This document shows, one piece after another, positions 29,479 through 61,207 of a DNA stretch of 64,000 nucleotides. The first letter of the stretch is position 1, and every line of letters starts with the position of its first letter. This stretch comes from a virus. Taxonomy: Duplodnaviria; Heunggongvirae; Uroviricota; Caudoviricetes. The notes beneath the pieces were generated by a model. That model saw only the letters and a program-made list of their open reading frames with translations. It had not been told where the DNA came from and did not search any database. The stretch lies in the IMG/VR virus record IMGVR_UViG_3300042892_003674; one strand, written 5' to 3'. The translations under genes were made by a program, and so were the position numbers.

Positions 29479-29730
29479 TTATTTATCAAAGATAATTTCA
29501 TCATATCCTAATTCTTCTTTTAAACGTGAAATAATTTCTTCACTTGTTGATATAAAGTTGTATTGATTATCCATCAAGGTTTTATTATCTGAACCACATT
29601 GACATCCTTTTATGAATTTTTCTGTGACAAATATAAATCTTGCTAGTTCTTTATTATTCTCAAAGATTTCTTCTTTGTTTTTAAGAATTGTCCACAGTTG
29701 AGTTGCGGATTTTACTATTAGTGTTTTCAT
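29479..29730 (-). CDS. hypothetical protein
   Basis: 83 aa ORF. Confidence 0.6.
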   Translation of the reverse strand: MKTLIVKSATQLWTILKNKEEIFENNKELARFIFVTEKFIKGCQCGSDNKTLMDNQYNFISTSEEIISRLKEELGYDEIIFDK

Positions 29731-29773
29731 TGGTTAAACTTATTTTATGTTTCTATATATAATTAAAAAATAG

Positions 29774-29977
29774 TTGATTATTATGAGTAAAAGTTTTAGT
29801 GGTAGTATGATGTCAGATGCTAAGTCAGCGGCACCAGATTACAGATGGGAGAATGAAAGATATTTATTAAATATTATCAAAACTCAATTAGGAATTACAG
29901 ACGAGGATATGAATAACCCAAGTATTGTAAAAGCTAAAGTTAGAGAAGCTAATATCGATAAAATATTAGAAAACTAA
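29774..29977 (+). CDS. small protein with C-terminal RExxIxxIL motif
   Basis: Ends VREANIDKILEN; terminator follows at 29982-30010. Confidence 0.65.
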   Translation: MIIMSKSFSGSMMSDAKSAAPDYRWENERYLLNIIKTQLGITDEDMNNPSIVKAKVREANIDKILEN

Positions 29978-30012
29978 CAAATAAAACCTCTCATTTGAGA
30001 GGTTTTATTTTG

Positions 30013-30083
30013 TTATCCTACAGGGATTCGAACCCCGACTGTTTGGACCAAAACCAAATGTGCTACCGTTACACCATAGGATA
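30013..30083 (-). tRNA. tRNA-Gln(UUG)
   Basis: Cloverleaf; loop TT-TTG-GT. Confidence 0.85.
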
Positions 30084-30088
30084 ATATG

Positions 30089-30160
30089 TAGCGTTGGGGA
30101 ATTCCGAGATCCCGACCGTTCGGATATGAGCCGACTTCTCTGCCTCTGAGATACAACGCC
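30089..30160 (-). tRNA. tRNA-Met(CAU), atypical T-loop
   Basis: Loop CT-CAT-AT; T-loop CTCGGAA; Ile2 identity not excluded. Confidence 0.7.
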
Positions 30161-30167
30161 ATTTATT

Positions 30168-30241
30168 TGCAGTGAATATTGGACTCGAACCACACCTCCG
30201 ACGACTCCGGTCGGTACTCTAACCTTTTAAGCTATATCACT
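30168..30241 (-). pseudogene. degenerate tRNA (Asp-like body, scrambled loop CGGAGTC)
   Basis: D-arm and TTCGAG present; acceptor and T stems mismatched; G33 and T37. Confidence 0.55.
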
Positions 30242-30308
30242 TCTCCAACTTGTCTTTTACTAGATATTACACAAGTCAGGATTACACTTACCTTCCAGTA
30301 AGCTTTTG

Positions 30309-30437
30309 CGGTAGTGGCTGGACTCGAACCAGCAATGTGAAATCCTCTAGGCGACACTTATTCCTAAAACTATAAAGTTTCACAACCCTTATAATTTCGT
30401 CATCCGATTAATCTCTGACTTTAGTGCTAACACTACC
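30309..30437 (-). ncRNA. tRNA-like RNA: acceptor plus T-arm with about 95 nt structured insert
   Basis: GGTAGTG/CACTACC; GCTGG-TTCGAGT-CCAGC; internal TGTGAAA/TTTCACA stem. Confidence 0.65.
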
Positions 30438-30443
30438 AATTTG

Positions 30444-30512
30444 TACCGAGAAAGGGTATCGAACCCTTCTATAGACGGATATGAGCCATCCACGGTCGCC
30501 TGACCCCTCGGT
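30444..30512 (-). tRNA. tRNA-Met(CAU) with minimal D-loop
   Basis: Loop CT-CAT-AT; D-arm GGTC-AGGC-GACC. Confidence 0.65.
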
Positions 30513-30518
30513 ATGTTG

Positions 30519-30591
30519 CAGTTATAACGGGGATCGAACCCGCGACCTCTAGGGCGACAACCTAGCACTCTAACCTCTGAGCTATATAACT
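30519..30591 (-). tRNA. tRNA-Asp(GUC)
   Basis: Loop TT-GTC-GC. Confidence 0.9.
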
Positions 30592-30598
30592 ATTTTAG

Positions 30599-30672
30599 CG
30601 GGACCAACGGGATTCGAACCCGCACCGCGCACCGTGACAGGGTGGCATTGTAAACCATTCAACCATGGTCCC
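30599..30672 (-). tRNA. tRNA-Asp(GUC)
   Basis: Loop CT-GTC-AC; near-identical to 31222-31295. Confidence 0.9.
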
Positions 30673-30681
30673 ATATTTTTG

Positions 30682-30756
30682 TCGGGATAGCAGGATTCGA
30701 ACCTGCGACCTCTTGCTCCCAAAGCAAGCGCGATAACCGGACTACGCTATATCCCG
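30682..30756 (-). tRNA. tRNA-Pro(UGG)
   Basis: Loop TT-TGG-GA. Confidence 0.92.
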
Positions 30757-30817
30757 AAAAATCTAATTCTACGCTAACAGTATGTAGTTCTATGAATTAG
30801 TAACAGTCTCATCTGAG

Positions 30818-30890
30818 CGGTCTATGAGGGATTCGAACCCTCTCCGTACCGGGCGACAGCCGGACATCTTAGCCATTTGACCTATAAACC
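30818..30890 (-). tRNA. tRNA-Asp(GUC)
   Basis: Loop CT-GTC-GC. Confidence 0.88.
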
Positions 30891-30898
30891 AATTTTTG

Positions 30899-30972
30899 CA
30901 GTACTAACGGGACTCGAACCCGCAATCTCCACCGTGACAGGGTGGCGTCATACACCAATATGCTGTAGTACT
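30899..30972 (-). tRNA. tRNA-Asp(GUC)
   Basis: Loop CT-GTC-AC. Confidence 0.88.
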
Positions 30973-30979
30973 ATTTTCG

Positions 30980-31054
30980 TCGCGTAAACAGGACTCGAAC
31001 CTGCAATAACCCCGCGTCCAAGGCGGGTAACCTCTCTCTGTGGATCGTTACGCG
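30980..31054 (-). tRNA. tRNA-Pro(UGG), atypical D-arm
   Basis: Loop CT-TGG-AC. Confidence 0.75.
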
Positions 31055-31063
31055 TTATTTTTG

Positions 31064-31137
31064 TTGTACTATCAGGATTCGAACCTGAGCTACTTGAGTC
31101 AAAGTCAAGTGTGTTTAAACCGCTACACTATAGTACA
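31064..31137 (-). tRNA. tRNA-Gln(UUG)
   Basis: Loop CT-TTG-AC. Confidence 0.88.
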
Positions 31138-31144
31138 GTATTTG

Positions 31145-31215
31145 TTAGAGTACTGGGGGTCGAACCCAGAGCACAGGATCCAAAGGCCTGGATATTACCG
31201 TTATACGATACTCTA
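31145..31215 (-). tRNA. tRNA-Gln(UUG)
   Basis: Loop CT-TTG-GA. Confidence 0.8.
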
Positions 31216-31221
31216 ATTTAG

Positions 31222-31295
31222 CGGGACCAACGGGATTCGAACCCGCACCGCACACCGTGACAGGGTGGCATTGTAAACCATTCAACCATGGTCCC
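31222..31295 (-). tRNA. tRNA-Asp(GUC)
   Basis: Duplicate of 30599-30672 with 1 nt difference. Confidence 0.9.
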
Positions 31296-31304
31296 ATTTA
31301 TTTG

Positions 31305-31378
31305 TCGCAAAGACGGGAATCGAACCCGCTAACTGATGCCTCCAATGCACCCGTGCTTAAAACCTTAGTCACTTCGCG
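31305..31378 (-). tRNA. tRNA-Pro(UGG)
   Basis: Loop AT-TGG-AG. Confidence 0.75.
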
Positions 31379-31393
31379 TTATTTTTATTCCAT

Positions 31394-31429
31394 AAAAAAA
31401 ATCCGTTAGTCTCAAAGACTAACGGATTT
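31394..31429 (-). terminator. attenuator terminator, tRNA array 1
   Basis: AAATCCGTTAGTCT-TTG-AGACTAACGGATTT plus U-tract. Confidence 0.9.
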
Positions 31430-31452
31430 GTAATTTTTATACACGTAATTTC

Positions 31453-31551
31453 TTAATGTGATATAAATACATAGTTAGTCTGGCTCGTGAAACGATCCTG
31501 ATCCTGCATCGGCTGCGGCATAACTACTATATTTACATTTACATTTTTCAT
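31453..31551 (-). CDS. leader peptide 1 (MKNVNVNIVVMPQPMQDQDRFTSQTNYVFISH)
   Basis: Translated by hand; MPQPMQDQD run matches the Met/Pro/Gln/Asp array. Confidence 0.88.
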   Translation of the reverse strand: MKNVNVNIVVMPQPMQDQDRFTSQTNYVFISH

Positions 31552-31555
31552 ATTA

Positions 31556-31615
31556 CTATATATTAAACTTTTATTGTTCCTTTTTGTTTTTCTTTGATTT
31601 TATACTACAAAAGTA
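31556..31615 (-). promoter_or_regulatory. tandem promoter boxes for array 1 (TActTTTG and TAATATATAG)
   Basis: Same two boxes precede leaders 2 and 3. Confidence 0.6.
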
Positions 31616-31645
31616 ATATAAAGTTTTCAATTCACCTAATCTTTA

Positions 31646-31771
31646 TTAGATTTTTTTAATTTCTTTTTTAGAAAGTGCTCTTTCTGAGCTCCAAAAGATT
31701 CTTTTGTATTTCTTTCTCAAGTGTTTAGCCCATTCTTTACAAACTGCAAACTGTCCTTTTTTACCAGCCAT
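31646..31771 (-). CDS. small basic protein (41 aa, not in ORF track)
   Basis: MAGKKGQFAVCKEWAKHLRKKYKRIFW...; TAtcTTTG box upstream. Confidence 0.55.
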   Translation of the reverse strand: MAGKKGQFAVCKEWAKHLRKKYKRIFWSSERALSKKEIKKI

Positions 31772-31819
31772 TGTTTCTATTATTTTAACAAAGATACAAC
31801 TATTTTTTTATTCACCAAA

Positions 31820-32242
31820 CTACCAACCGACTATTTCATCGATTGCTTGTTGAACTGCTGCATTAAAGGCCATATCATGATCTGAATCACCTTCATCATA
31901 TCCAATTTCTGCTGAACTGTCAGATAAACAAGTTGTAAACTCGTGTATAGCACTTCTAAGATCTTCTCTTAGTTTGTTATAACAAGGTAGTTTAACCATT
32001 TTATCTAATACATCATAGTCAATACTAGATTCATTGATTTTAGATTCTTCTAAAGATTCAATTTTATCATCAACTTCTTCAATTGATAAATCGTCTATTT
32101 TTCTAGTTTTATCATTAAAACGTGATTTTACGTTTCTAGGAAATTGTTGATTATCAGTATTTTTAGTGAAACCTCTTTTGAAGTCTTGAATCGTACTTTT
32201 CTCTTCTTCTTTTTTGAAGTCATCAAATTTTGCTATAGCCAT
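31820..32242 (-). CDS. hypothetical protein
   Basis: 140 aa; N-term MAIAKFDDF, internal KINES. Confidence 0.7.
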   Translation of the reverse strand: MAIAKFDDFKKEEEKSTIQDFKRGFTKNTDNQQFPRNVKSRFNDKTRKIDDLSIEEVDDKIESLEESKINESSIDYDVLDKMVKLPCYNKLREDLRSAIHEFTTCLSDSSAEIGYDEGDSDHDMAFNAAVQQAIDEIVGW

Positions 32243-32250
32243 GTTGTTAT

Positions 32251-32517
32251 TTATTTTTTGTTTATTAGTTCTTCAACGTATTTATCTCTTTGTTCTATTA
32301 AGTATTCATTACGTTGTATTAAACGTGTTCTTTCATCTTCCATGAGTTTATCAATGTAGTCTTGTTGTTTATCAATAGTTACTTGTTGCATATCAATTCT
32401 ATTATTATAAGTTTTATATTGAAAGTATATTACACCTAACATTAGAACTATAGTAAATGATTGCTCTTTAAGCTTAGATAAAAAAATATCTGTTATACTT
32501 TCTTTATTACCTTCCAT
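32251..32517 (-). CDS. single-TM coiled-coil protein (possible holin-like)
   Basis: Hydrophobic FTIVLMLGVIYF followed by a charged coiled coil. Confidence 0.45.
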   Translation of the reverse strand: MEGNKESITDIFLSKLKEQSFTIVLMLGVIYFQYKTYNNRIDMQQVTIDKQQDYIDKLMEDERTRLIQRNEYLIEQRDKYVEELINKK

Positions 32518-32520
32518 GAT

Positions 32521-32751
32521 TTATAGACAAGCGTTGATTTCATTTTTTTGTTGTTCTGTTAAACCAGATTCAAACCAATCTTTACCTAACATTATTGTTA
32601 AGTGTTCTTTGTTTCTATCTAATCTATCTTGTTCTTCTTCTGTTAAAGAAGTCTTTAACTTTAATTCATTGATTAAGTTTACTGAATCAAATGCAGCGGA
32701 GATTGAACGTTGAGTTTGTTCTTCTGTTGTCTCAATTTCTGGAATAGTCAT
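32521..32751 (-). CDS. hypothetical protein
   Basis: 76 aa ORF. Confidence 0.65.
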   Translation of the reverse strand: MTIPEIETTEEQTQRSISAAFDSVNLINELKLKTSLTEEEQDRLDRNKEHLTIMLGKDWFESGLTEQQKNEINACL

Positions 32752-32757
32752 AATTAT

Positions 32758-33306
32758 TTATTTTATTTTTATTCTAAAACTTTCGTAAGTTTGTAGATAT
32801 TTATTTTTAGATTCGGTATAAGTATAGCTATCAGGATATTTATCAATAAAAGAGAAATCTTTTACTGATAGTTTAAATCCTAATCTATTAAAGAAATTTA
32901 CTAGATCTTTTATTGATTGATCTTCAAATCCAAAGAATGTTTCTTTATCATATTTAGAACCTAATCCTGTGTAATGTATAATTTCTGTATTACCCGGCAT
33001 TTTTATAATAAACTCTGATACCATTGCATCACCATAGGTAATATCTATATTTAATTTAAGATCAGATAAAGCTTTTGTACCATCATTATCTTGTACTAAA
33101 TGAATATCAAATTCCAAATAATCAGGTTCACCATTTAATTTATTATGTTTAAATGTATTTTGATGATATATTATTTGTGCAATATTAGCATTACCAATTA
33201 TTGATACTTCTGAAAATAATAAGTTAAAATTACCATTATCTGTAACAATAGTTAGTTTTTTAGGTAAATATTTTTTCCATACTTCCTTATCAAATATGTT
33301 TGTCAT
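32758..33306 (-). CDS. hypothetical protein
   Basis: 182 aa ORF. Confidence 0.7.
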   Translation of the reverse strand: MTNIFDKEVWKKYLPKKLTIVTDNGNFNLLFSEVSIIGNANIAQIIYHQNTFKHNKLNGEPDYLEFDIHLVQDNDGTKALSDLKLNIDITYGDAMVSEFIIKMPGNTEIIHYTGLGSKYDKETFFGFEDQSIKDLVNFFNRLGFKLSVKDFSFIDKYPDSYTYTESKNKYLQTYESFRIKIK

Positions 33307-33385
33307 TTAATGAAATCATTTTTCTTATATATTAAATTACAATTATCGAAAAATAAAAAAGTCGAGATTTCTCTCGACTTTTGTT

Positions 33386-34648
33386 TTAACACATATAAAC
33401 ACTATCATCATAATCACCTAAGATTTCGATACCTCGGTAATCTAAATCTGGTAGGTATTCTAATAGATCATTTCTATCACACTCAGTTCTATGTTCTGAC
33501 TCATAGAATACAGTACATTTGAAACCATCCCACTCTAATTTAGTATAGTGTAGTTCAATATCTTTGAACAATCTTGTAATAAGTTGAGACTCATATTTAA
33601 TTCTATCCTCAATCAACTCTACTTTAACTATTTTACCAGTTGTGGCATTTGTTTCAATCATAGATAAATATTGGAACAATTCATCATAGAAGTAAGACTT
33701 CTCAGTTTTAACTCTGTAAGCACCTTGTTGTCTAGTTCTTGAAGAACTATAATCATTGGTCATTACATTTGTTGATGCATAAGCATTGGTATAGTTACCA
33801 GTATCATATCTTGAAGAACCCCAAGCACCCCAATCATCACCGTAACCACCGTAACCACCCCAAGAGTAATCGTACTCAACTTTTGATGGATCTCTTTCTA
33901 CAGGTAAGCTAGCCCAATCAACTTTTAGACAAGCTTCAGCTAATTTGGTTAAGTGAGCAATATCTTGTCTTTCAGAGAAAGTATGTTCAGAGTAATAACC
34001 AACAGAAATGTTTGTACATTCTGGATAGATACTAATAAATTGTATAGAGTCAGTTAAAACACCATTTTTGTCTAATTTATATGAGAATGTTTCTTCAACA
34101 TCGTTAAATGCTTTTGCAAGAGCTTCACCAAATGTATCTGAACAACATCTTTTTGAACTTTGAAATGTAATGATAGAATCAGTGCTTCTACGGTCAAAAG
34201 AGATTACTTTGTTGATACCTGGAATTTTCTCTACTTTTTGTACATCAGCAACTTTTCTAGAACCGATACAACCTACTTCTTCTCCTAGGAAAAAGTAATA
34301 TAAACCAGGAATATTTTTTTCGATCATGTTTAACATAATTGTTACACCTGCTTTATCATCGGCACCTAAGATAGATTTACCATCAGTTTTGATAATATCT
34401 CCGTCAAAAATATGAACAACTTCTGTATTTGCTTTAGTTGCAGTATCTAAGTGTGAAGTAAACATAGCATCACTCTCACCTATTTTAATAAATAAGTTAC
34501 CAAATTCATCCTCTTTTAAACTTTTAGGTAACAAGTGAAAAAGTTCTTGCTCAGTACCGTGAGGATAAGTTCTAGATGTTAGTTGTAAGAATTTTTTTGT
34601 TATATTCATTTTAGCGATTTTTTTATTATTATAATTAATAACATGCAA
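33386..34648 (-). CDS. M28/M20 zinc peptidase
   Basis: SHLDT, LGADDKAG, GEEVGCIGS, SFDRR, YYSEH. Confidence 0.88.
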   Translation of the reverse strand: MHVINYNNKKIAKMNITKKFLQLTSRTYPHGTEQELFHLLPKSLKEDEFGNLFIKIGESDAMFTSHLDTATKANTEVVHIFDGDIIKTDGKSILGADDKAGVTIMLNMIEKNIPGLYYFFLGEEVGCIGSRKVADVQKVEKIPGINKVISFDRRSTDSIITFQSSKRCCSDTFGEALAKAFNDVEETFSYKLDKNGVLTDSIQFISIYPECTNISVGYYSEHTFSERQDIAHLTKLAEACLKVDWASLPVERDPSKVEYDYSWGGYGGYGDDWGAWGSSRYDTGNYTNAYASTNVMTNDYSSSRTRQQGAYRVKTEKSYFYDELFQYLSMIETNATTGKIVKVELIEDRIKYESQLITRLFKDIELHYTKLEWDGFKCTVFYESEHRTECDRNDLLEYLPDLDYRGIEILGDYDDSVYMC

Positions 34649-34709
34649 ATATAAACATATTATTTAATATAACAAAAGATTATAGAATTATTTTTTTAAT
34701 ATATAAATT

Positions 34710-36926
34710 ATGTTTACAATAGATACAAATGTTTTAAATGGTTCCACTGTTATTTCTGATAAATTTAACATAAGTGCTAGTGCCTCAGCAGCCGATGCAA
34801 CACCTTATATTAATAATATAGAAGAAGAGTACATAATCAGTTTTACAAATTTACAAAATATTAGCAAGATAACCAAATTTACTTACGATACTTTAGGTTT
34901 ATCTACTACAAGATATTTAGCACAATATTATCGTTTATCAAGAGATGGTCAAAAATGGACTAATTGGTTTGACTTAAAAAAATATATTGATAACTTTCCA
35001 GCAATAGACCCGTTAGACCCACTATATTTAGATATTAAATGGGTTAGAAAAGGAACAAATCCACTTGGTTCAATTAGAATATTAGAGTATGCTATTGAAT
35101 GTACAGTTGAAAGACCTATGGTCGATGATGGTTCTGCAGTTCAATTACCAGCAGGAGGTATTCAACTAATTAGACCACCTTTTATTTATAAAGTTTTTAA
35201 ATTAGAAGATGTTGAAGTAATATCATCTACTGGAATACAAGGGGTAGATTTGAAGTGGAGGTACTCTCAAGATAATTCAAGAACTTGGTCAGATTGGGAA
35301 TTTCTAACTAAAGAAAATGTATCTACTAAAAGACTAACACCAACAAGATTTTTTGAAGTTGAGTATTCAATAGAGAATAAATCTGGTGTTCCAGTAAAAA
35401 TACAAGATATAAATTTAATTGGTAATTTTCAAAATGTTACTTTAGATTATCAAAAAAGTAATTTATATGGATTAAGAGAATGTTGTCAATCGAACTTAAC
35501 TGGTGCATTTGATGCTAATGGAAATTTTATACCTAATACTAATTTAAACTCAAATAGTGGTGGAGGCTGTGATTCTACTAATATATTTTCGTCAATGACA
35601 AAAGATGAACAAGCACTTCTTTACAACCCTTATAATCAAAGTACGGCACTAAATCTTTTGAATAAATTAAGTACAGATGCCCAAATGATGTTTGGACATG
35701 CAGTTGTTTACTTTGTAACTGACCCTGATGCAAAAGGTCAAGATTATTCAATGCATGAGTATCAACTATATAATATTGTTTGTGAAGGTGATGTTAAAGT
35801 ATCTGTAAATAATAATGAGTTTCCAGACTCACAAATTACAATGAATCAATTTGATTTAAGTTTATTTGATAATATGGAAGTACACATAACAAAAGAACAA
35901 TTCAAAAGTGTATTTGGTGCACAAAGAAGACCTGGTAAAGAAGACTTTATGTTTTTCTGTCAACTAAGTAGAATGTTTCAAGTAGATCACGTATCTCAAT
36001 TTAGAGGATTTAATAACTCTGCAGTTTATTATAAATTGATATTGAAAAAATACAATCAAAAAGCAAATGTACAAGCTGGTACGACAGAGATTCAAAACAA
36101 ATTGGATATGCTTACACAGAATACTACAATTGATTCATTATTTGGTGTTGAAAATACAGAAGATAAGAGAGCGGTAGCTAATAAAGTTCAAACAAGAACT
36201 TTAACTAGTGATTTAATTAGGTTAGAATATTTGGCAACTATAAATAAAGAACTGATTGAAAATTCTTCTACAGTAATATCTAAATCAAATTATGACTTAT
36301 ATTCAGTTGATGCAGGAATACCAGCAGTAAATTACTTTAACTCTGATCCTATTCTAAAAGTTTCCGATAATATTGGATTTACAATTTGGTTTAATATCAA
36401 TAATTATATAGATGGTGAGGTTTATAACTTCTTTAATTACTATGATGATACTAATGTTGGTAATCCAATTGGTTGGAAAGTGAATTTAACTAATGATGTA
36501 ATAACCGTTACTTTAAATGGTGATACTTATACAACAAATTCTGATTTATTGTTAGATGAAGAAGTTTGGTATTGCTATACATTAAATGTTGATCAAAGAA
36601 ATAGAAAAATATCTCAATTTATTTATAAACGTAATGTTGATTTTGAAGAAGAAGCGGGAAGACTTACAAGTAACTTCCTAAGAAAAGTTTATTCTGATGA
36701 ACAAGATATGACACCATTTGAATTTACTATTGAAAATACTAATCCTCAATTATTAGGTTCCGATATGAAAGTAACTAATATTAGATTATTTACTGATATT
36801 ATACCAGAATCTACATTTGATAAGATACTTAATCAAGCGATTATTAGAGACGATTCTAAGTATTTAGTTTTTGCAGATAACGCGAATACACGTCTCACAC
36901 TTCCAAATTTTCCACTATTTGAATAA
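34710..36926 (+). CDS. probable virion protein with neck (T4 gp14-like) central domain and C-terminal LamG-like domain
   Basis: FGHAVVYF...EYQLY...EVHITKEQFKSVFG..RP...DF.F pattern; TAATATATA box upstream. Confidence 0.5.
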   Translation: MFTIDTNVLNGSTVISDKFNISASASAADATPYINNIEEEYIISFTNLQNISKITKFTYDTLGLSTTRYLAQYYRLSRDGQKWTNWFDLKKYIDNFPAIDPLDPLYLDIKWVRKGTNPLGSIRILEYAIECTVERPMVDDGSAVQLPAGGIQLIRPPFIYKVFKLEDVEVISSTGIQGVDLKWRYSQDNSRTWSDWEFLTKENVSTKRLTPTRFFEVEYSIENKSGVPVKIQDINLIGNFQNVTLDYQKSNLYGLRECCQSNLTGAFDANGNFIPNTNLNSNSGGGCDSTNIFSSMTKDEQALLYNPYNQSTALNLLNKLSTDAQMMFGHAVVYFVTDPDAKGQDYSMHEYQLYNIVCEGDVKVSVNNNEFPDSQITMNQFDLSLFDNMEVHITKEQFKSVFGAQRRPGKEDFMFFCQLSRMFQVDHVSQFRGFNNSAVYYKLILKKYNQKANVQAGTTEIQNKLDMLTQNTTIDSLFGVENTEDKRAVANKVQTRTLTSDLIRLEYLATINKELIENSSTVISKSNYDLYSVDAGIPAVNYFNSDPILKVSDNIGFTIWFNINNYIDGEVYNFFNYYDDTNVGNPIGWKVNLTNDVITVTLNGDTYTTNSDLLLDEEVWYCYTLNVDQRNRKISQFIYKRNVDFEEEAGRLTSNFLRKVYSDEQDMTPFEFTIENTNPQLLGSDMKVTNIRLFTDIIPESTFDKILNQAIIRDDSKYLVFADNANTRLTLPNFPLFE

Positions 36927-36939
36927 AATATATACATAT

Positions 36940-37338
36940 ATGAGAAAGTTTACAAGTTTAAATGAAGATGTTAAGTTCGGAAGACATATGATTGAAGAAG
37001 ATAAAATCTTATATCAAGATAGTGATTTCTTTATAATGTTTGATGGATTTCCAACAAGTCCAGGTCACATACTTATCATAACAAATGGACCAGAAGAAAC
37101 TTACTTTGATTTAAGTCAGTCCAAAAAGAAGAAACTATCTGAAATGTTAGATAAAGCTAAACAGATAGTTGAATCACAATATGAACCAGATGGTTACAAT
37201 ATAGGTATGAATTGTGGTGAACCAGCAGGACAAACAGTAATGCAATTTCATTGTCATTTAATCCCAAGATATACTGGTGACGTAGAAAATCCAAGAGGTG
37301 GTGTTAGACACTCTGTTATAGGAAAAGGTTATTATTGA
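36940..37338 (+). CDS. HIT-family hydrolase
   Basis: FPTSPGHIL, GYNIGMNCG..AGQTVMQFHCHLIPR; start reset to MRKFTSLNE. Confidence 0.9.
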   Translation: MRKFTSLNEDVKFGRHMIEEDKILYQDSDFFIMFDGFPTSPGHILIITNGPEETYFDLSQSKKKKLSEMLDKAKQIVESQYEPDGYNIGMNCGEPAGQTVMQFHCHLIPRYTGDVENPRGGVRHSVIGKGYY

Positions 37339-37673
37339 TTATGAAAGAATATTTATTTGTATATGGTCAATTTAGAGATACTGCAAAAAATTTACTAAAG
37401 AAACCTGTTTTTTTTGGAAGAGCAACAATTAAAGGTAAAATTTATAGAGTAAATGAATTCTACCCTGGTTTTGTAAGTGGATCTGGAGAAGTTTTAGGAG
37501 ATATATATCTTATAGACCCATCAATATTCCCAGAACTAGATGATTTTGAAGGTGATGAGTATATAAGAGTTAAAACAAACACATCAAAAGATATTGAGTG
37601 TTGGGTTTATAAGTATAAATATGATGTTAAAGATTTTGAAGAAATCAAAGGTGGTGATTGGTGGCTTAGATAG
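37335..37673 (+). CDS. gamma-glutamylcyclotransferase (AIG2-like)
   Basis: LFVYG, YPG, LDDFEG..Y.R. Confidence 0.85.
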   Translation: MIMKEYLFVYGQFRDTAKNLLKKPVFFGRATIKGKIYRVNEFYPGFVSGSGEVLGDIYLIDPSIFPELDDFEGDEYIRVKTNTSKDIECWVYKYKYDVKDFEEIKGGDWWLR

Positions 37674-38106
37674 TTGGTATTAAATACTCAGTAACTGAAG
37701 TCCAATCAGGAAACTTATCTGAAGCAAATTCAATCCATTCTCCTTCAAACTCAGGTTGACCATTTTGACCATTATCATCAATAAGGTAGTCACCTTTCAC
37801 TAAAGATTTATCACCACACATAATCGTTTTTTCTAATACATCGAAACCTAAATGTTCTAAAACCCACTCAGCTTTCTCGTTAAAACAATTGATATTTTTA
37901 AATGAAGGACGTGTTAAAATCCAAACGTCATAATGTTCTTTTAATTTATTAAAAGACTCAATTGCATCTGGCATTGGTTCAAGATTTTTGAAGAACCCTA
38001 TTCGTGATTGAGGAAATTTAAAGTCAGGGTCTTTTCTACGAACATCTGAGAATGCTCCAAAAAAATCACACAAAACTCCATCCATGTCAATATAAACTCT
38101 TTTCAT
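37666..38106 (-). CDS. 5'(3')-deoxyribonucleotidase (HAD)
   Basis: YIDMDGVLCDF, EKAEWV, DYLIDD. Confidence 0.88.
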   Translation of the reverse strand: MKRVYIDMDGVLCDFFGAFSDVRRKDPDFKFPQSRIGFFKNLEPMPDAIESFNKLKEHYDVWILTRPSFKNINCFNEKAEWVLEHLGFDVLEKTIMCGDKSLVKGDYLIDDNGQNGQPEFEGEWIEFASDKFPDWTSVTEYLIPTI

Positions 38107-38154
38107 AATAATGTGTTTTATATTCTATACAAAGATACGAATTTAGTTTAAATA

Positions 38155-38188
38155 AAAAAGACTTCTTAATTAAAAGAAGTCTTTTTTT
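38155..38188. terminator. bidirectional terminator ending tRNA array 2
   Basis: AAAAAAGACTTCTT-AATTA-AAGAAGTCTTTTTTT. Confidence 0.8.
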
Positions 38189-38192
38189 GTTG

Positions 38193-38267
38193 AGCACTCT
38201 ACCGGATTCGAACCGGTGTCCCTGGGTTACAAAGCCAGAATAATCAAACCAACTATACGAAGAGTGC
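38193..38267 (-). tRNA. tRNA-Thr(UGU)
   Basis: Loop TT-TGT-AA. Confidence 0.8.
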
Positions 38268-38276
38268 ATATTTTTG

Positions 38277-38350
38277 AGCCAATAAAGGGAGTCGAACCCT
38301 CAACCTTCTCCATACCAAGGAGATACTCTAACCAATTGAGCTATATCGGC
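38277..38350 (-). tRNA. tRNA-Thr(GGU)
   Basis: Loop TT-GGT-AT. Confidence 0.9.
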
Positions 38351-38357
38351 ATTTTTG

Positions 38358-38431
38358 AGGCGCGGACTGGGATCGAACCAGTGTGTATGAGGTTGCAGCT
38401 CATCGCCTTCGTGCCACTCGGCCACCGCGCC
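38358..38431 (-). tRNA. tRNA-Cys(GCA)
   Basis: Loop CT-GCA-AC. Confidence 0.9.
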
Positions 38432-38438
38432 ATTATTG

Positions 38439-38511
38439 AGCTTCCTGACGGGATCGAACCGACGACATCTTGATTACAAATCAAGTGCTCTACCTGCTGA
38501 GCTAAGGAAGC
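38439..38511 (-). tRNA. tRNA-Thr(UGU)
   Basis: Loop TT-TGT-AA. Confidence 0.92.
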
Positions 38512-38520
38512 ATTTATTAG

Positions 38521-38591
38521 AGGTGCCTACTGGATTCGAACCAGTGTAGGAGATTTTGCAGACCTCTGCCTCACCACTCGGCCAAGGCACC
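38521..38591 (-). tRNA. tRNA-Cys(GCA)
   Basis: Loop CT-GCA-AA. Confidence 0.92.
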
Positions 38592-38599
38592 ATTTTTTG

Positions 38600-38673
38600 T
38601 TGGTAGTAAGGGAGTCGAACCCATAACCTCTTCGGTATCAGCGAAGTGCTCTAACCAGTTGAGCTAACTACCA
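38600..38673 (-). tRNA. tRNA-Ile(GAU)
   Basis: Loop CT-GAT-AC. Confidence 0.9.
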
Positions 38674-38681
38674 ATATATTG

Positions 38682-38757
38682 TGATTCCTATAGGATTCGA
38701 ACCTATGACCTCTTCCGTGTAAAGGAAGCGCTACTGAACCAACTGAGCTAAGGAACC
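38682..38757 (-). tRNA. tRNA-Val(UAC)
   Basis: Loop TT-TAC-AC. Confidence 0.92.
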
Positions 38758-38764
38758 TTTTTAT

Positions 38765-38944
38765 TTATTTTTCTTCACAATTATAATTTACGATGAAGTT
38801 CCATTTAGGAAAATTAGGATTTGATATATTTTCTATTACTTTTTCAGAAATCAATCTAAATCCATTAGTTTTCTCTAATGTTTCTCTCCAATTATAATTT
38901 TCATCATCAGAGCTAAATCCAATTGTGACATTTAATGTTTTCAT
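38765..38944 (-). CDS. 59 aa hypothetical protein inside tRNA array 2 (not in ORF track)
   Basis: MKTLNVTIGFSSDDENYNWRE...; fills the spacer between the two Val tRNAs. Confidence 0.55.
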   Translation of the reverse strand: MKTLNVTIGFSSDDENYNWRETLEKTNGFRLISEKVIENISNPNFPKWNFIVNYNCEEK

Positions 38945-38945
38945 G

Positions 38946-39020
38946 TAGTCCTAGACGGATTCGAACCGACGACCTATTCCGTGTTAAAGAATCGCTCTGA
39001 ACCAACTGAGCTATAGGACT
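38946..39020 (-). tRNA. tRNA-Val(AAC)
   Basis: Stem ATTCT/GGAAT, loop TT-AAC-AC. Confidence 0.85.
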
Positions 39021-39027
39021 ATTTTTG

Positions 39028-39100
39028 TTGGTATGGCGGGTTACGATCCCACTACCTTTCGCGTATCAGGCGAATGCTCTACCGAGTGAGCTACATACCA
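39028..39100 (-). tRNA. tRNA-Ile(GAU)
   Basis: Loop CT-GAT-AC; T-loop ATCGTAA. Confidence 0.82.
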
Positions 39101-39109
39101 ATATTTTTG

Positions 39110-39183
39110 CTCTCCCGCTTGGACTCGAACCAAGGACCCTCTGATTAACAGTCAGATGCTCTAACCAACTGAGCTACAGGAGA
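39110..39183 (-). tRNA. tRNA-Asn(GUU)
   Basis: Loop CT-GTT-AA. Confidence 0.92.
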
Positions 39184-39189
39184 ATTTTG

Positions 39190-39277
39190 CTACTGGGGTG
39201 GGATTCGAACCCACGGTGGAGCGATGCTCATCGGATTAACAGTCCGAACCATTCGACCTGGCTATGGCAACCCAGTA
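39190..39277 (-). tRNA. tRNA-Asn(GUU) with long variable arm
   Basis: Loop CT-GTT-AA; extra arm GAGC-ATC-GCTC. Confidence 0.75.
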
Positions 39278-39284
39278 ATATCTG

Positions 39285-39358
39285 CTCTCTCGACAGGACT
39301 CGAACCTGTAACCCTTGGACTAACAACCCACCGCTCTGACCATTATAGCTACGAGAGA
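39285..39358 (-). tRNA. tRNA-Asn(GUU)
   Basis: Loop TT-GTT-AG. Confidence 0.82.
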
Positions 39359-39377
39359 ATATTTATTTTTTGACATG

Positions 39378-39409
39378 AAAAAACCCAAACTTTTTGAGTT
39401 CGGGTTTTT
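39378..39409 (-). terminator. attenuator terminator, tRNA array 2
   Basis: AAAAACCCGAAC-TCAAAAA-GTTTGGGTTTTTT. Confidence 0.88.
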
Positions 39410-39436
39410 ATGAATTTATTATAATATACTTTAACT

Positions 39437-39526
39437 TTATACCATACATATCTCATTACCCGAAGTCGTGTTATTCACACAATTCGTAATCGTAATCACA
39501 TTAATATTTACAGTATTTGTTTTCAT
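39437..39526 (-). CDS. leader peptide 2 (MKTNTVNINVITITNCVNNTTSGNEICMV)
   Basis: Residues 3-21 are only T/N/V/I/C, the five specificities of the array. Confidence 0.9.
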   Translation of the reverse strand: MKTNTVNINVITITNCVNNTTSGNEICMV

Positions 39527-39530
39527 TATA

Positions 39531-39588
39531 TTATATATTAAATTTTTATTGTCCCTTTTTGTTTATCTTTATTTATAGTACAAATATA
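39531..39588 (-). promoter_or_regulatory. tandem promoter boxes for array 2
   Basis: TAtaTTTG (39581-39588) and TAATATATAA (39531-39540). Confidence 0.6.
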
Positions 39589-39631
39589 CTATAAGTTTTT
39601 TAATCTACCTAATTTTATTAGTATTATTTTG

Positions 39632-39714
39632 TACGGATAGTCGGACTCGAACCGACACGCATATTTCAGCACTGACTTCTAAGGCCAGCGGGTCTACCAT
39701 TCCCCCATACCCGC
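39632..39714 (-). tRNA. tRNA-Leu(UAG)
   Basis: Loop CT-TAG-AA; long variable arm. Confidence 0.9.
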
Positions 39715-39722
39715 ATATTTTG

Positions 39723-39804
39723 TATCGAAGGTGGGATTCGAACCCACACGTCTTTTGGACACTCGGTCTTGAGCCAAGCACGTCTACCATTTCATCACTC
39801 CGAC
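39723..39804 (-). tRNA. tRNA-Leu(CAA)
   Basis: Loop CT-CAA-GA. Confidence 0.92.
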
Positions 39805-39813
39805 ATTCATTTG

Positions 39814-39896
39814 TACCGAGAGCGGGACTCGAACCCGCACGTCCTTTCGGACACTGGCTTCTTAGACCAGCATGTCTACCATTCCACCACCTCGGC
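39814..39896 (-). tRNA. tRNA-Leu(AAG)
   Basis: Stem CTGGT/GCCAG, loop CT-AAG-AA. Confidence 0.88.
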
Positions 39897-39902
39897 ATAT
39901 TG

Positions 39903-39987
39903 TATCGGAGAAGGGACTCGAACCCTCACGCCCATTACTGAGCACAGCATTTTAAGTGCTGCGTGTCTACCATTCCACCACTCCGAC
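39903..39987 (-). tRNA. tRNA-Leu(UAA)
   Basis: Loop CT-TAA-AA. Confidence 0.92.
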
Positions 39988-39998
39988 AAGTGATTTTG

Positions 39999-40079
39999 TA
40001 CCCCAGATAGGATTCGAACCTACATTTTCAGTTTCCAATTACCCGTAGTTGTTTAGAAGACAACTGGGACTACTGAGGC
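39999..40079 (-). ncRNA. D-armless tRNA-Arg(UCU)-like RNA
   Basis: Acceptor GCCTCAG/CTGGGGT; extended stem AGTTGT-CTTCTAA-ACAACT; canonical T-arm; no D-arm. Confidence 0.6.
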
Positions 40080-40088
40080 ATATTTTTG

Positions 40089-40175
40089 TACGTCTGGAGG
40101 GAGTCGAACCCTCACGGCCATTCCTGACCACAGATTTTTAAGACCTGCGTGTACTACCAATTTCACCACAGACGC
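40089..40175 (-). tRNA. tRNA-Leu(UAA)
   Basis: Loop CT-TAA-AA. Confidence 0.9.
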
Positions 40176-40181
40176 ATTTTG

Positions 40182-40255
40182 TGACCCCGACAGGATTCGA
40201 ACCTGTGACCTACTCATTAGAAGTGAGTTGCTCTATCCAGCTGAGCTACGGGGCC
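40182..40255 (-). tRNA. tRNA-Arg(UCU)
   Basis: Loop CT-TCT-AA. Confidence 0.93.
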
Positions 40256-40274
40256 AATTTTTATTTTTTTCCAC

Positions 40275-40308
40275 AAAAAAACCCGAAACTTTTATATTTC
40301 GGGTTTTG
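40275..40308 (-). terminator. attenuator terminator, tRNA array 3
   Basis: CAAAACCCGAAA-TATAAAAG-TTTCGGGTTTTTTT. Confidence 0.88.
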
Positions 40309-40331
40309 TTTGTATATTTAGTTATAATATG

Positions 40332-40436
40332 TTATCCAATAACAGTATCATTTGCTCTAAATAAGGCAAAACCCGGTTCACGTCTTAGACATAAGACATT
40401 CAGCGTTAAGTTAATATTTAGATTAGTTGTTTTCAT
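40332..40436 (-). CDS. leader peptide 3 (MKTTNLNINLTLNVLCLRREPGFALFRANDTVIG)
   Basis: 6 Leu and 3 Arg codons upstream of the Leu/Arg array. Confidence 0.85.
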   Translation of the reverse strand: MKTTNLNINLTLNVLCLRREPGFALFRANDTVIG

Positions 40437-40440
40437 TATT

Positions 40441-40501
40441 GTATATATTAAGATTTTATTCTCTCTTTTTGATTATTTGTTATTTTTATAGTACAAAAGT
40501 A
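40441..40501 (-). promoter_or_regulatory. tandem promoter boxes for array 3
   Basis: TActTTTG (40494-40501) and TAATATATAC (40441-40450). Confidence 0.6.
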
Positions 40502-40526
40502 ATAAAAGTTTTCTATTGTACCTAAT

Positions 40527-40760
40527 TTATTTTAATTTATTTTCAAAAAACTCTGAGAGTTCTTTTACTAACTGTTCATTATTTTTTATTGTAGATTCTT
40601 GATCTTTTACATCAACCTCAATTGGATCATCAAACCATAATCCTTTGTTATCAAATCCTTTTGTTTTTGTCCAGGTAATCAAATCATTTAATCCCCAGAA
40701 TACTTCTTGTGGAGTATCTGAACCCCAAGAGTGCATAATTGTTAAGAAAAATTTTTCCAT
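40527..40760 (-). CDS. hypothetical protein
   Basis: 77 aa; TAccTTTG box upstream. Confidence 0.65.
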   Translation of the reverse strand: MEKFFLTIMHSWGSDTPQEVFWGLNDLITWTKTKGFDNKGLWFDDPIEVDVKDQESTIKNNEQLVKELSEFFENKLK

Positions 40761-40836
40761 TTATTTAGTTATTTCTATTTGTACTACAAAGGTAATAAAA
40801 AATTTTTATTGTATCAAAAATATGATATTTATTAAA

Positions 40837-41110
40837 CAGATAATCCAGATATTTCTATCTGGATTATCCGTTATAAGTAATATCACGTTAGTGATATTCC
40901 CCTACCACAGATAATGTCACCACTATCTGAGATCTCGCGACTGACCGGTTACCCGGCCAGCCGCGAGACACTAAACAAGAGCAGTTCTGAAGAATTGCCC
41001 TGTTTTCGCACACCTTCACAACGGGTTGCGTTGTGATTTAGCTGGTAGATTCCACTAACCTTTCACTAGCAAGGTGAATTGGCTGGGAACTGACTCACAT
41101 CAAACAAGAT
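40837..41110 (-). ncRNA. unidentified structured ncRNA
   Basis: GC-enriched non-coding stretch with at least 5 hairpins and a TAATATATAC box upstream. Confidence 0.6.
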
Positions 41111-47288: not shown

Positions 47289-47914
47289 AATTTTTTAAAT
47301 ACTGTTATCCCATCTAACTCTATCTCAGATAATTTATCAGATAAAGAGGTAAGAATTTCTCTTTCTCCCAATCCATAATTTTTATTCTCGATAAGAATAG
47401 AACCTGGTTGCATTTCTTCTATTACTTTTAGATAGAAAGTTTTAAGTTTTTCTATATCTCTAAAAGGTGTATAACAATATATGATATTATAATCATGATA
47501 CTTTTGTTCCATTAAATCACCTTCTAATATTTGTAAATCGTTATTCCAAAAATCTAAAAGATTTTCATTAAGATAATTTACATATTTAGATTGTTTCTCT
47601 ATTCCTACAAAAGAATAATTCTTTTCAAGTTTTTTAGATTGAAGATAAATATCAAAAATCGCAGTTCCTAATCCTATACCACAATCACATATCTTTCCTG
47701 AATCTGGAAGCAATCCCATATCTTCTAGTTTCTTCAATAAAAAGATGTTTTGATCTAAATTACTTTGAATGTATAACCATTCACCATCTTCTGTTTTACT
47801 TACAAGCATATCACTTACTTCAAAAATCTTTGCGACCTTATAGTACTCTATAAGAGTCGGATCTGGTTCAACTATGATAAGTGGAGACAATCCAAGTGTT
47901 TTTCTTTCCTCCAT
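47285..47914 (-). CDS. class I SAM-dependent methyltransferase-like protein
   Basis: ICDCGIGLG, FVGIE, EGD, IYCYTPF. Confidence 0.65.
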   Translation of the reverse strand: MEERKTLGLSPLIIVEPDPTLIEYYKVAKIFEVSDMLVSKTEDGEWLYIQSNLDQNIFLLKKLEDMGLLPDSGKICDCGIGLGTAIFDIYLQSKKLEKNYSFVGIEKQSKYVNYLNENLLDFWNNDLQILEGDLMEQKYHDYNIIYCYTPFRDIEKLKTFYLKVIEEMQPGSILIENKNYGLGEREILTSLSDKLSEIELDGITVFKKL

Positions 47915-49506
47915 TATGCTATCAATTCTTCTGTTTCATGTTCTACTAAAACTGCAGCTCTTTGTCTAATCTCATCAAAGTTCCACTCTTTAGTAATTAC
48001 ACCCATTCTAAATACTTCAACTAATTCGTCTTTAACAGTATCAAAGTCAGCATCCATTGAAGTAACAGTTCTGAAAGTACCATCATCATTTTTAACAAGT
48101 TTCAAACGACCTTGTTTAGATTTTTTGAAAGATTTCATAATATTACCATCTGCATCCATTTCTGTAGGAGATTTAACTACATTTCTTTCTTCACCATCAA
48201 CTACAGCAAAACAAGCTTTAGTTGCAAAGTTATTTGTATCACGGTTTATATCCGCTTGTAGTAATTTACCACCCATACCTAGTGCTAAGTTCTCTGGAGA
48301 AATTTTCTCTGCTTTTAACATCGCATAGATTTCACCAATTGATTCTAAGTTTACACCGTCACCTTGAATTACTCTAACTTGTGGTGGAAGTACTTTGTAA
48401 CCTTTTTCATTTACAGTATAACCAAACTTGTCAAATAATATATCAAAGATTTCTTTTAATGTTCTTAAAACGTGACCAGAGTCAGGTCTAATAACTAATT
48501 GATTTCCAGGTGTTGCAGGTCTTGAAAGAACTAAATCTCTTAACTCAGTTCCCCAATACTCAGAACAAGCTCTAAAGATGTTATATGAATCTGATACACA
48601 TGCTACTAATCCAGTAGGAAATGTTTTTAAAACTCGCATCATTAACTCTAACTCTCCTTCTTCACCTTTAAGTGTCATAATAGAGTGTTCAGTTGCTGGA
48701 ATTGATAAACCATATACTCTATCTGTATTATATACGTCTCTAATCAATTTAGAAGCGATTACAGTGTCTGATCCTAGGAAGTTGACTAAATGTGCTGATC
48801 CACCAATTTTCGCTGATTGTACAGAAGATACACCTCTAAAACCAAAGTCATTTAAAACAAAATCAACTAAGAAATTGATTGTTTTATCATCATAAGAAGT
48901 ACAATCTAAAAATGAATTGGTTACAATTTTTCTAACTTCTCTTGAAAGAGTAGCCACAGTGATTGGATACCAAACTTGAAGTAAGATACTTTCTAGGAAG
49001 TTTGTCAACCAAGCACATTTTTCATCTAAGCTTTCAATAATGAAAAGTACATTTTTTGTATTTACAACGGTTCCCTCTGGTACAGCTTTAATACTGATAG
49101 GAAGTTTACCATCATATTTATCAACGATATAATCGAATTTAGAACGGTCGAATACATCTTCTCTGCCAAATACACCTAATTTAGAAGCTAAGTAATCATC
49201 TGCTTCATCAACTTCTTCTTTAGTAATAGCGATACCTTCTAAGTATTGTTTAAGTAAAATTTGTAGACCATAGAATAAGGTTTCAGAGAATTTACCACCA
49301 CGAGATTCCATATAGGAAACCATTTTGGTCATTTCTGTACCGTAAAATCGGTGGTGTGAGTATTTGTATGCGTCAGAGCAAAGGATTAAATTGTCTGGTT
49401 TTGTAATGATTTTTGTTAGGTATTTTTGAATACCTTCTAAAGAGTTCCAATCTTTATCAGCAATGGCTCTTTCTAATTTTCGAGTAATTTGTCTTTGTAA
49501 ACTCAT
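47914..49506 (-). CDS. nadV: nicotinamide phosphoribosyltransferase
   Basis: SDAYKYSH, DFGFRG, SIPATEHS, VSDSY, VIRPDSG, IQGDG, KKSKQGRL. Confidence 0.95.
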   Translation of the reverse strand: MSLQRQITRKLERAIADKDWNSLEGIQKYLTKIITKPDNLILCSDAYKYSHHRFYGTEMTKMVSYMESRGGKFSETLFYGLQILLKQYLEGIAITKEEVDEADDYLASKLGVFGREDVFDRSKFDYIVDKYDGKLPISIKAVPEGTVVNTKNVLFIIESLDEKCAWLTNFLESILLQVWYPITVATLSREVRKIVTNSFLDCTSYDDKTINFLVDFVLNDFGFRGVSSVQSAKIGGSAHLVNFLGSDTVIASKLIRDVYNTDRVYGLSIPATEHSIMTLKGEEGELELMMRVLKTFPTGLVACVSDSYNIFRACSEYWGTELRDLVLSRPATPGNQLVIRPDSGHVLRTLKEIFDILFDKFGYTVNEKGYKVLPPQVRVIQGDGVNLESIGEIYAMLKAEKISPENLALGMGGKLLQADINRDTNNFATKACFAVVDGEERNVVKSPTEMDADGNIMKSFKKSKQGRLKLVKNDDGTFRTVTSMDADFDTVKDELVEVFRMGVITKEWNFDEIRQRAAVLVEHETEELIA

Positions 49507-60827: not shown

Positions 60828-60868
60828 AAAAAAACCCAATCTGATTTTTACGTCAGATTGGGTTTTTT
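60828..60868 (-). terminator. attenuator terminator, tRNA array 4
   Basis: AAAAAACCCAATCTGA-CGTAAAAA-TCAGATTGGGTTTTTTT. Confidence 0.9.
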
Positions 60869-60891
60869 GTATAATAATGTTCTTTAACTCA

Positions 60892-60993
60892 TTACTTTAT
60901 ACACATAACGCTTCTGACCGATGGTATTGTATACCCCGCTTCATACCCGCCTATGGCTTCGATAGCTATTGTTATGTTAGTAATTGTTGTCAT
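60892..60993 (-). CDS. leader peptide 4 (MTTITNITIAIEAIGGYEAGYTIPSVRSVMCIK)
   Basis: Residues 9-21 are only I/A/E/G/Y; 5 ATA codons match tRNA-Ile(UAU). Confidence 0.9.
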   Translation of the reverse strand: MTTITNITIAIEAIGGYEAGYTIPSVRSVMCIK

Positions 60994-61031
60994 TTTTTCT
61001 ATTTTTTAAATTGTTGTTTTTAATTCTTCTA

Positions 61032-61039
61032 CAAAGATA
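61032..61039 (-). promoter_or_regulatory. TAtcTTTG promoter box for array 4
   Basis: Matches the Bacteroidota -7 consensus TAnnTTTG. Confidence 0.6.
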
Positions 61040-61088
61040 CGATAAGTTTTTAAACTACCAAATCTTTTTTTAATTTTTTATTCTTTAG

Positions 61089-61161: not shown

Positions 61162-61207
61162 ATATATTTTTTGAGACTTGTATCTAAATCGTTACCTATC
61201 TCTTTTG

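Follow-up and report, generated by a model that had tools for sequence, protein, structure and literature searches.

A predicted leader-peptide attenuator for five amino acids ahead of a phage tRNA array

The closest described systems to the phage module analysed here (module B) are the enterobacterial ilvGMEDA (Ile/Leu/Val), thr (Thr/Ile) and ilvBN (Val/Leu) leaders, with which it has in common a short leader ORF for several amino acids, translated in the enterobacterial cases, and the mutually exclusive 1:2, 2:3 and 3:4 RNA pairings. In the enterobacterial leaders as in module B, region 1 lies within the sensing codons and an intrinsic terminator stands just before the regulated genes; termination by default, with readthrough upon ribosome stalling, is proposed here for module B as well. 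Leader-peptide attenuation of a component of the translation apparatus by aminoacyl-tRNA supply is represented by Escherichia coli pheST with its pheM leader. To our knowledge the described cases of supply-sensing attenuation are confined to amino-acid biosynthesis and a few synthetase operons, and tRNA genes themselves are the textbook case of growth-rate and stringent control exerted at the promoter. T-box riboswitches resemble module B in that tRNA status is sensed and a choice is made between terminator and antiterminator. Clustered tRNA genes like those behind module B are found in T4, T5 and the huge phages, where they are thought to offset a codon-usage mismatch or tRNA-targeting defences (Al-Shayeb et al., 2020; PMC7162821).

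A full-text literature search, incomplete in its coverage, returned no account of tRNA genes under leader-peptide attenuation and none of amino-acid-sorted tRNA genes behind matched leaders. The Rfam leader families (Thr_leader RF00506, His, Leu, Trp and Phe) gave no match at module B at E ≤ 1; the sole leader match lay on the terminator of sister module A and reached 25.8 bits for Thr_leader, against a threshold of 55. The T-box model gave no match in 29500-41000 at E ≤ 1.

Organization of the module and composition of its leader ORF

The window (the whole 64,000-nucleotide stretch of IMG/VR record IMGVR_UViG_3300042892_003674, a tailed phage of the Caudoviricetes, to which positions refer unless another sequence is named) contains 41 tRNA genes in four blocks as called by ARAGORN. 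Module B occupies the 272-nt spacer between the Leu/Arg block and the Asn/Ile/Val/Cys/Thr block, and on the minus strand it runs from a promoter-like box through a 29-codon ORF with an internal antiterminator and a U-tailed hairpin to 12 tRNA genes, the first of which begins 20 nt beyond the U-run (Table 1). The original prediction is confirmed in these respects: the 29-residue ORF is present, with 23 of its 29 residues being T, N, V, I or C and residues 3-21 exclusively so; TTCGGGT within it has its complement, ACCCGAA, in the 5' arm of the U-tailed hairpin; and the array holds Asn x3, Ile(GAU) x2, Val x2, Cys x2 and Thr x3.

Table 1. Positions of the elements of module B, of its sister modules and of the adjoining arrays in the window
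Feature	Positions	Strand	Basis or remark
Conserved promoter-like box	39572..39613	-	exact match to 42-nt degenerate motif
Conserved 5'-leader block	39532..39561	-	common to every module found
Leader ORF, 29 codons + TAA	39437..39526	-	ORF list, composition, orthologs
Region 1, anti-antiterminator strand	39477..39486	-	codons 14-17, Thr-Asn-Cys-Val
Region 2, antiterminator strand	39457..39471	-	core UUCGGGU 39464-39458, inside codons 21-23
Spacer hairpin around stop codon (39439-39437)	39410..39456	-	predicted fold
Intrinsic terminator	39378..39409	-	fold and duplex energy
Terminator 5' arm, ACCCGAAC	39405-39397	-	
Terminator 3' arm, GUUUGGGU	39391-39384	-	
U-run (U6)	39383-39378	-	
Regulated tRNA array (array B)	38192..39358	-	ARAGORN and Rfam tRNA matches
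Module A	40270..40526	-	
Module A leader ORF	40436..40332	-	Leu/Arg-rich
Array A, Arg(UCU) + Leu x5	40255..39631	-	downstream of module A leader
Module C	31395..31640	-	Asp/Gln/Pro/Met array follows
Module C leader ORF	31551..31453	-	MPQPMQDQD at codons 11-19
Module E	60830..61060	-	
Module E leader ORF	60993..60892	-	rich in Ile(AUA)/Ala/Glu/Gly/Tyr

The promoter-like box begins 18 nt past the last tRNA-Leu of the upstream array and ends in TATATTTG, followed by TACTATAAA; the former fits TAnnTTTG, which we take to be the Bacteroidota -7 promoter element. Within the window the 42-nt box motif occurs at three paralogous modules only (0 expected), and it is also found at homologous modules in IMG/VR contigs. 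The adjoining 5'-leader block ends in TTAATATATA, 5 nt ahead of the ATG. The combination TTAATATATA-N4-10-ATG is present at 57 sites in the 634,780-bp phage genome LR745206.1 (0-1 for a reversed control), the sites inspected there lying ahead of ORFs of at least 64 aa (27 of 30) or ahead of leaders (the other three), and in the window it precedes genes of 738, 982 and 151 aa together with three leaders. The leader ATG shares its start context with many real genes. More widely, TTAATATATA or TAAATATATA stands 4-10 nt before protein-gene ATGs in the window (34700, 44109, 29451, 33330) and genome-wide in LR745206.1, and may be a phage-specific promoter or translation-start element. No Shine-Dalgarno sequence is found near the leader ATG, an absence that is expected in Bacteroidota, yet is no proof of translation.

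A consensus promoter/terminator scan, whose promoter-like counts were no higher than in shuffled sequence and are thus uninformative, listed nothing promoter-like on the minus strand within the 20 nt that separate the U-run from the first tRNA gene, a distance that appears to leave no room for a conventional promoter. The scan did not report the module B hairpin on the minus strand, probably because its A/U pairs absorb the U-run, and having missed the module's own hairpin it also found no other terminator-like site within array B. With no terminator between array A and module B, transcripts escaping attenuator A would meet attenuator B, and the two arrays would be gated in series yet independently.

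Array B reads Asn x3, Ile(GAU), Val(AAC), a 59-aa ORF, Val(UAC), Ile(GAU), Cys, Thr(UGU), Cys, Thr(GGU), Thr(UGU). The 59-aa ORF (38765-38944, minus strand) starts directly 3' of tRNA-Val(AAC) and recurs in the same place in six related contigs with 67-100% identity; lying inside the array, it would be co-regulated by attenuator B. Directly downstream of the array Pfam identifies an NT5C 5'-nucleotidase (37666-38106, minus strand), and elsewhere in the window a ClpB-like double AAA+ ATPase (20331-22436, minus strand), a nicotinamide/nicotinate phosphoribosyltransferase (47914-49506, minus strand) and a protein with an rRNA adenine dimethylase-like domain (53921-55348, plus strand). Four minus-strand tRNA-like sequences missed by ARAGORN, at 39999-40079, 31305-31378, 30170-30241 and 30309-30387, have Rfam tRNA scores of 38.1, 28.6, 29.3 and 23.5 bits respectively, the one at 39999-40079 having a long variable arm and lying within the Leu/Arg array; a further one at about 61210-61280 on the same strand was recognised by eye only.

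The window has a G+C content of about 28% (25-35%), so N, I, T and V are common residues in its reading frames. When set against 233 ATG-started ORFs of 20-45 aa from its six frames (mean T/N/V/I/C fraction 0.31, sd 0.11), the leader ORF nevertheless stands out, ranking at the top with a fraction of 0.82 (runner-up 0.62) and having the longest uninterrupted run of these residues (19; runner-up 6). The binomial probability of 23 or more of 28 is 8e-9 at the frequency in the window proteome (0.29) and 9e-8 for random codons at the base composition of the strand. Part of this enrichment is ancestral or compositional, since T/N/V/I also make up 21-50% of the other leaders, which share an MKT.N.NI-type N-terminus and the AT bias. 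The Cys codons had been put forward, along with the antiterminator, as the stronger evidence. We reject this for Cys, since nearly every class of leader has a single Cys codon irrespective of its array.

At the codon level, strict wobble rules allow the tRNAs of the array to decode 18 of the 19 codons ahead of the antiterminator, the exception being Lys-2, and Ile in the sensing run is spelled ATT, which is read by the array's Ile-GAU. The sensing run also contains the rarest codons of the phage (ACG x3 and GTG x2, each 3% of its family), as do the other leaders (CCG, CAG, CTG, GGG, GCG); such codons would be wobble-read and slowly decoded, and would in addition supply G-C pairs for the stems. 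In 12 distinct class B orthologs the frame and the length of 28-29 codons are kept and codons 7-18 are invariant at all sites, synonymous ones included, while the spacer is variable.

Alternative RNA pairings and their co-variation

The free leader RNA folds into the terminator plus the 1:2 hairpin (z-score -3.75), with ORF nt 41-50 (codons 14-17) paired to nt 56-66 in the minimum-energy fold. When the terminator 3' arm is withheld, or when region 1 is masked to imitate a ribosome whose A site lies on codons 11-17, the terminator 5' arm is instead paired with nt 59-70 (2:3) in every such fold, and classes A, C, D and E switch likewise. With the A site on codons 11-17 (I-T-I-T-N-C-V), which contain all five sensed amino acids, a ribosome would cover region 1 while sparing UUCGGGU. 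The 2:3 duplex has an energy of -12.9 kcal/mol as compared with -6.7 ± 2.0 kcal/mol for shuffled leaders, 2 of 300 of which are as good. The terminator core amounts to -9.0 kcal/mol, rising to between -16 and -17 kcal/mol in orthologs with a G-C extension, and owing to its G-U pair the hairpin is specific to RNA of the minus strand. In the full-length RNA with region 1 masked the terminator state is still favoured (-21.8 against -17.3 kcal/mol), and since it is lower in energy even then, the switch must be kinetic, as in classical attenuators. A ribosome at the stop codon would cover about nt 73-100 and abut region 2, and the spacer hairpin might serve as a pause site or as a structure melted by the terminating ribosome.

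Compensatory change had been proposed as a check on the antiterminator/terminator pair. In the alignment of the 12 distinct class B orthologs the six core 2:3 pairs are invariant, so that this comparison is uninformative. The terminator contains a single compensatory A-U/G-C pair and a single G-U/G-C pair. Across the same orthologs pairing is preserved at 97.5% in the 1:2 helix, with two one-sided U-A/U-G changes, and at 92.6% in the inner helix of the spacer hairpin despite its differing sequence. Between classes and in relatives with fused arrays the expected compensation is found, complementarity at the same leader position being kept through a full change of sequence in both strands (Table 2). 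Support for the module B pairing comes from its paralogues and the fused-array relatives, not from its own orthologs. Module A additionally shows a compensatory triple change in relative L001, and module C a compensatory change in relative L005. Among 26 representative leaders the mean energy of pairing with the own terminator is -11.62 kcal/mol, as against -8.39 ± 0.45 kcal/mol when terminators are permuted, and 0 of 20,000 permutations match the true value.

Table 2. Antiterminator sequences and the terminator 5' arms complementary to them, at corresponding positions in the leaders
Antiterminator	Terminator 5' arm	Remark
UUCGGGU	ACCCGAA	module B
CGGGUUUU	AAAACCCG	
UGGGUUUU	AAAACCCA	3' arm altered too
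AGACUAAC	GUUAGUCU	
AAACUAAC	GUUAGUUU	
CUGAGGGUU	AACCCUCAG	
GAACUUGG	CCAAGUUC	
UUCGGGGUU	AACCCCGAA	735-kb phage; extra base pair in all three strands

Sister modules and relatives

Module B is one of four paralogous modules in the window. Three of the spacers align through the promoter-like box, the block ending in TTAATATATA and an ORF opening ATGA(A/C)A, beyond which they diverge, each closing with a U-tailed hairpin. The fourth and more diverged, module E, precedes a Glu/Tyr/Ile(UAU)/Gly/Ala array, and its leader spells 5 of 7 Ile codons as ATA, for which the array has Ile-UAU; its antiterminator duplex is no better than that of shuffled leaders, which makes module E the weakest of the four. 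Upstream of leader E (61088-61310, minus strand) lie a tRNA-Met and another tRNA-like gene that have a promoter-like box ahead of them without a leader ORF, and these may be made constitutively.

In IMG/VR and JGI metagenomes, pattern scans turned up 59 distinct terminator-bearing modules. The leader classes number five: Leu/Arg; Asn/Ile/Val/Cys/Thr; Asp/Gln/Pro/Met; Lys/Trp/Phe/His/Ser, which was recovered by these scans and is absent from the window; and Glu/Tyr/Gly/Ala/Ile-AUA. Tabulated against each other (5 x 5), leaders and arrays match at 80 residues in the true pairing, the unique maximum of the 120 permutations (mean 34.8). Leader content also follows the array where the tRNA genes have been regrouped. 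In LR745206.1 the Leu/Arg and Asn/Val/Ile/Thr genes are fused in one array together with Met, and the single leader (20698..20582 on contig L013) mixes L, R, N, T, V, I and M, with 24 of 26 residues and 23 of 26 codons matching the array. In a second case (L080/L089) the array comprises Asn, Ile, Val, Thr, Leu x2, Cys, Asn, Met and Ser(GCU), and 23 of 25 residues of the L080 leader match it, Ser being spelled AGC and AGT. These re-partitioned arrays provide what we regard as the strongest argument that leader content is selected to mirror the array. In the 735-kb phage no obvious leader stands ahead of the differently partitioned Asn/Ile/Cys/Asp/Tyr and Thr/Val/Ala arrays in the gaps that were read, a result that is neither support nor refutation.

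No close phage relative emerged for the 37-42 kb region, megablast against INPHARED returning tRNA-length matches only. With the module as blastn query, the matches were confined to LR745206.1 and, at terminator length, LR756501/3. Al-Shayeb et al. (2020; PMC7162821), whose largest genomes include LR745206.1 and LR756501.1, predicted Bacteroidetes hosts for their largest-genome phages.

Several peculiarities of individual relatives were recorded. The class C ortholog in L002 has an in-frame TGA at leader codon 4 (2750-2760, minus strand) and its near-twin in L104 is intact; the stop could be an assembly error, a sign of a decaying module, or bypassed by restart at an internal ATG before PQPMQDQD. 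ARAGORN assigns 2- or 4-base anticodons (gt, gtag, gaag, ttac) to several array members in L002, L013, L047, L106 and L116, which may be miscalls or unusual tRNAs. In L003 a gene for a protein with Cys/His motifs (7740-8490, minus strand) is inserted between tRNA genes of the Leu array, the protein resembling, by eye only, an HNH homing endonuclease, and in L117 (LR756501.1, the 735-kb phage; 2820-3057, minus strand) an ORF that reads, again by eye only, like the C-terminal domain of ribosomal protein L7/L12 ends just upstream of a tRNA block.

Proposed mechanism and comparison with known systems

The sequence-level features of an attenuator are all present in module B, in that its parts, their order, the codon match, the alternative pairings, their conservation and their co-variation are evident from sequence and computation, and the paralogues and relatives add to them. 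The predicted attenuator is thus supported, and module B is very probably a multivalent, ribosome-mediated (leader-peptide) transcription attenuator gating a phage tRNA operon. On this reading the ORF would be translated, ribosomes would stall on it and the switch would operate in vivo in response to a physiological trigger. Transcription would be initiated at the promoter-like box of module B, or would continue into the module from the Leu/Arg array upstream, and the 29-codon ORF would be part of every transcript. With fast decoding of Thr, Asn, Val, Ile and Cys codons, the ribosome would pass region 2 and reach the stop codon, after which region 1 would re-pair with region 2, or the terminating ribosome would abut it; the terminator (3:4) would then form and RNA polymerase would halt 20 nt before the first tRNA gene. 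Were any cognate aminoacyl-tRNA scarce, the ribosome would stall with its A site at about codons 11-17, hiding region 1 and leaving UUCGGGU of region 2 free to pair with ACCCGAA of the terminator 5' arm, so that polymerase would enter the twelve Asn/Ile/Val/Cys/Thr tRNA genes. Their products would relieve the stall, which amounts to a negative-feedback control of decoding capacity by supply, and the array B tRNAs would probably be made only when ribosomes read the matching codons slowly. Candidate triggers are phage codon use that is poorly matched to the tRNAs of the host, or a loss of host tRNAs as infection proceeds.

The reading that comes nearest to this keeps the translated ORF and the switchable terminator and has them report overall translation or ribosome availability instead of five aminoacyl-tRNAs, the codon content arising incidentally from AT bias, from common ancestry and from what the RNA stems require. 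T/N/V/I-rich N-termini in all leader classes favour such a generic coupling sensor, as do the sensing codons ACG, GTG and TGT, which also build regions 1 and 2, and class B is without variation that would separate codon from structure constraints. However, leader composition follows array content across the five classes and in two re-partitioned arrays, the match reaches codon choice (ATT versus ATA; AGY with Ser-GCU), and among 120 possible assignments of leaders to arrays the true one is uniquely best, which makes this reading unlikely. A hairpin flanked by an A-tract and a T-tract, as in bidirectional terminators, might alternatively be an ordinary terminator that ends the Leu/Arg transcripts or insulates the arrays, with the tRNAs made by constitutive leak-through or from an unrecognised promoter, promoter-like sites being plentiful in AT-rich DNA, and with the ORF untranslated. 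The conserved promoter-like box is nonetheless upstream and not downstream of the terminator, the tRNA genes start only 20 nt from the U-run, and the composition of the ORF, its conserved frame, its gene-like start and the co-varying antiterminator would go unexplained, so that we judge an ordinary terminator very unlikely.

Recognition of uncharged or charged tRNAs by the leader RNA itself, through codon-like specifiers and without translation, would suit output genes that are tRNAs and has a precedent in T-box elements, which also act by antitermination. Neither a T-box nor any other riboswitch family is matched at E ≤ 1, however, five amino acids and about 19 in-frame cognate codons are incompatible with a single specifier, and translation is indicated by the context of the ATG and by conservation of the frame; direct RNA sensing is accordingly highly improbable. 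Hardly any credence attaches, likewise, to a functional small peptide whose likeness to the amino acids of the array is incidental: the peptide is highly conserved among class B orthologs, but the paralogous peptides are alike only in their first few residues, the remainder being re-spelled according to the array of each, and conservation extends to synonymous sites, indicating a constraint at the RNA or codon level.

Taken beyond module B, the attenuator reading makes it likely, in our estimation, that huge Bacteroidota phages run a decoding-capacity homeostat in which at least five operons divide the tRNA genes by amino acid, each operon lying behind a matched leader and being transcribed only when the corresponding tRNAs are short. 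If true, this would be the first ribosome-mediated attenuation of tRNA genes, with direct feedback from decoding speed to tRNA synthesis, the leaders often being written in the rarest wobble-read codons and the cue being, for example, host tRNA loss or a tRNA-targeting defence. Control of tRNA genes would follow a new regulatory logic if subsets of tRNAs were metered by the speed of ribosomes on matching test codons, and this would explain why these phages sort the genes by amino acid. It would also offer a handle on why phages carry tRNAs, whether for codon compensation or for replacing those lost to host defences, and the modules would constitute compact natural multi-input sensors of decoding capacity that could be reused in engineering.

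As compared with the known systems, the pheST attenuator controls an aminoacyl-tRNA synthetase for one amino acid, whereas module B would control the tRNA genes themselves, and T-boxes, unlike module B, bind one tRNA directly, dispense with an ORF and are found mainly in Firmicutes. With respect to the enterobacterial leaders, module B would regulate tRNAs instead of biosynthetic enzymes, so that its output directly restores the quantity sensed; it would sense five amino acids, is viral and has a host type without Shine-Dalgarno sequences, and it is one of at least five paralogous modules that jointly cover all 20 amino acids.
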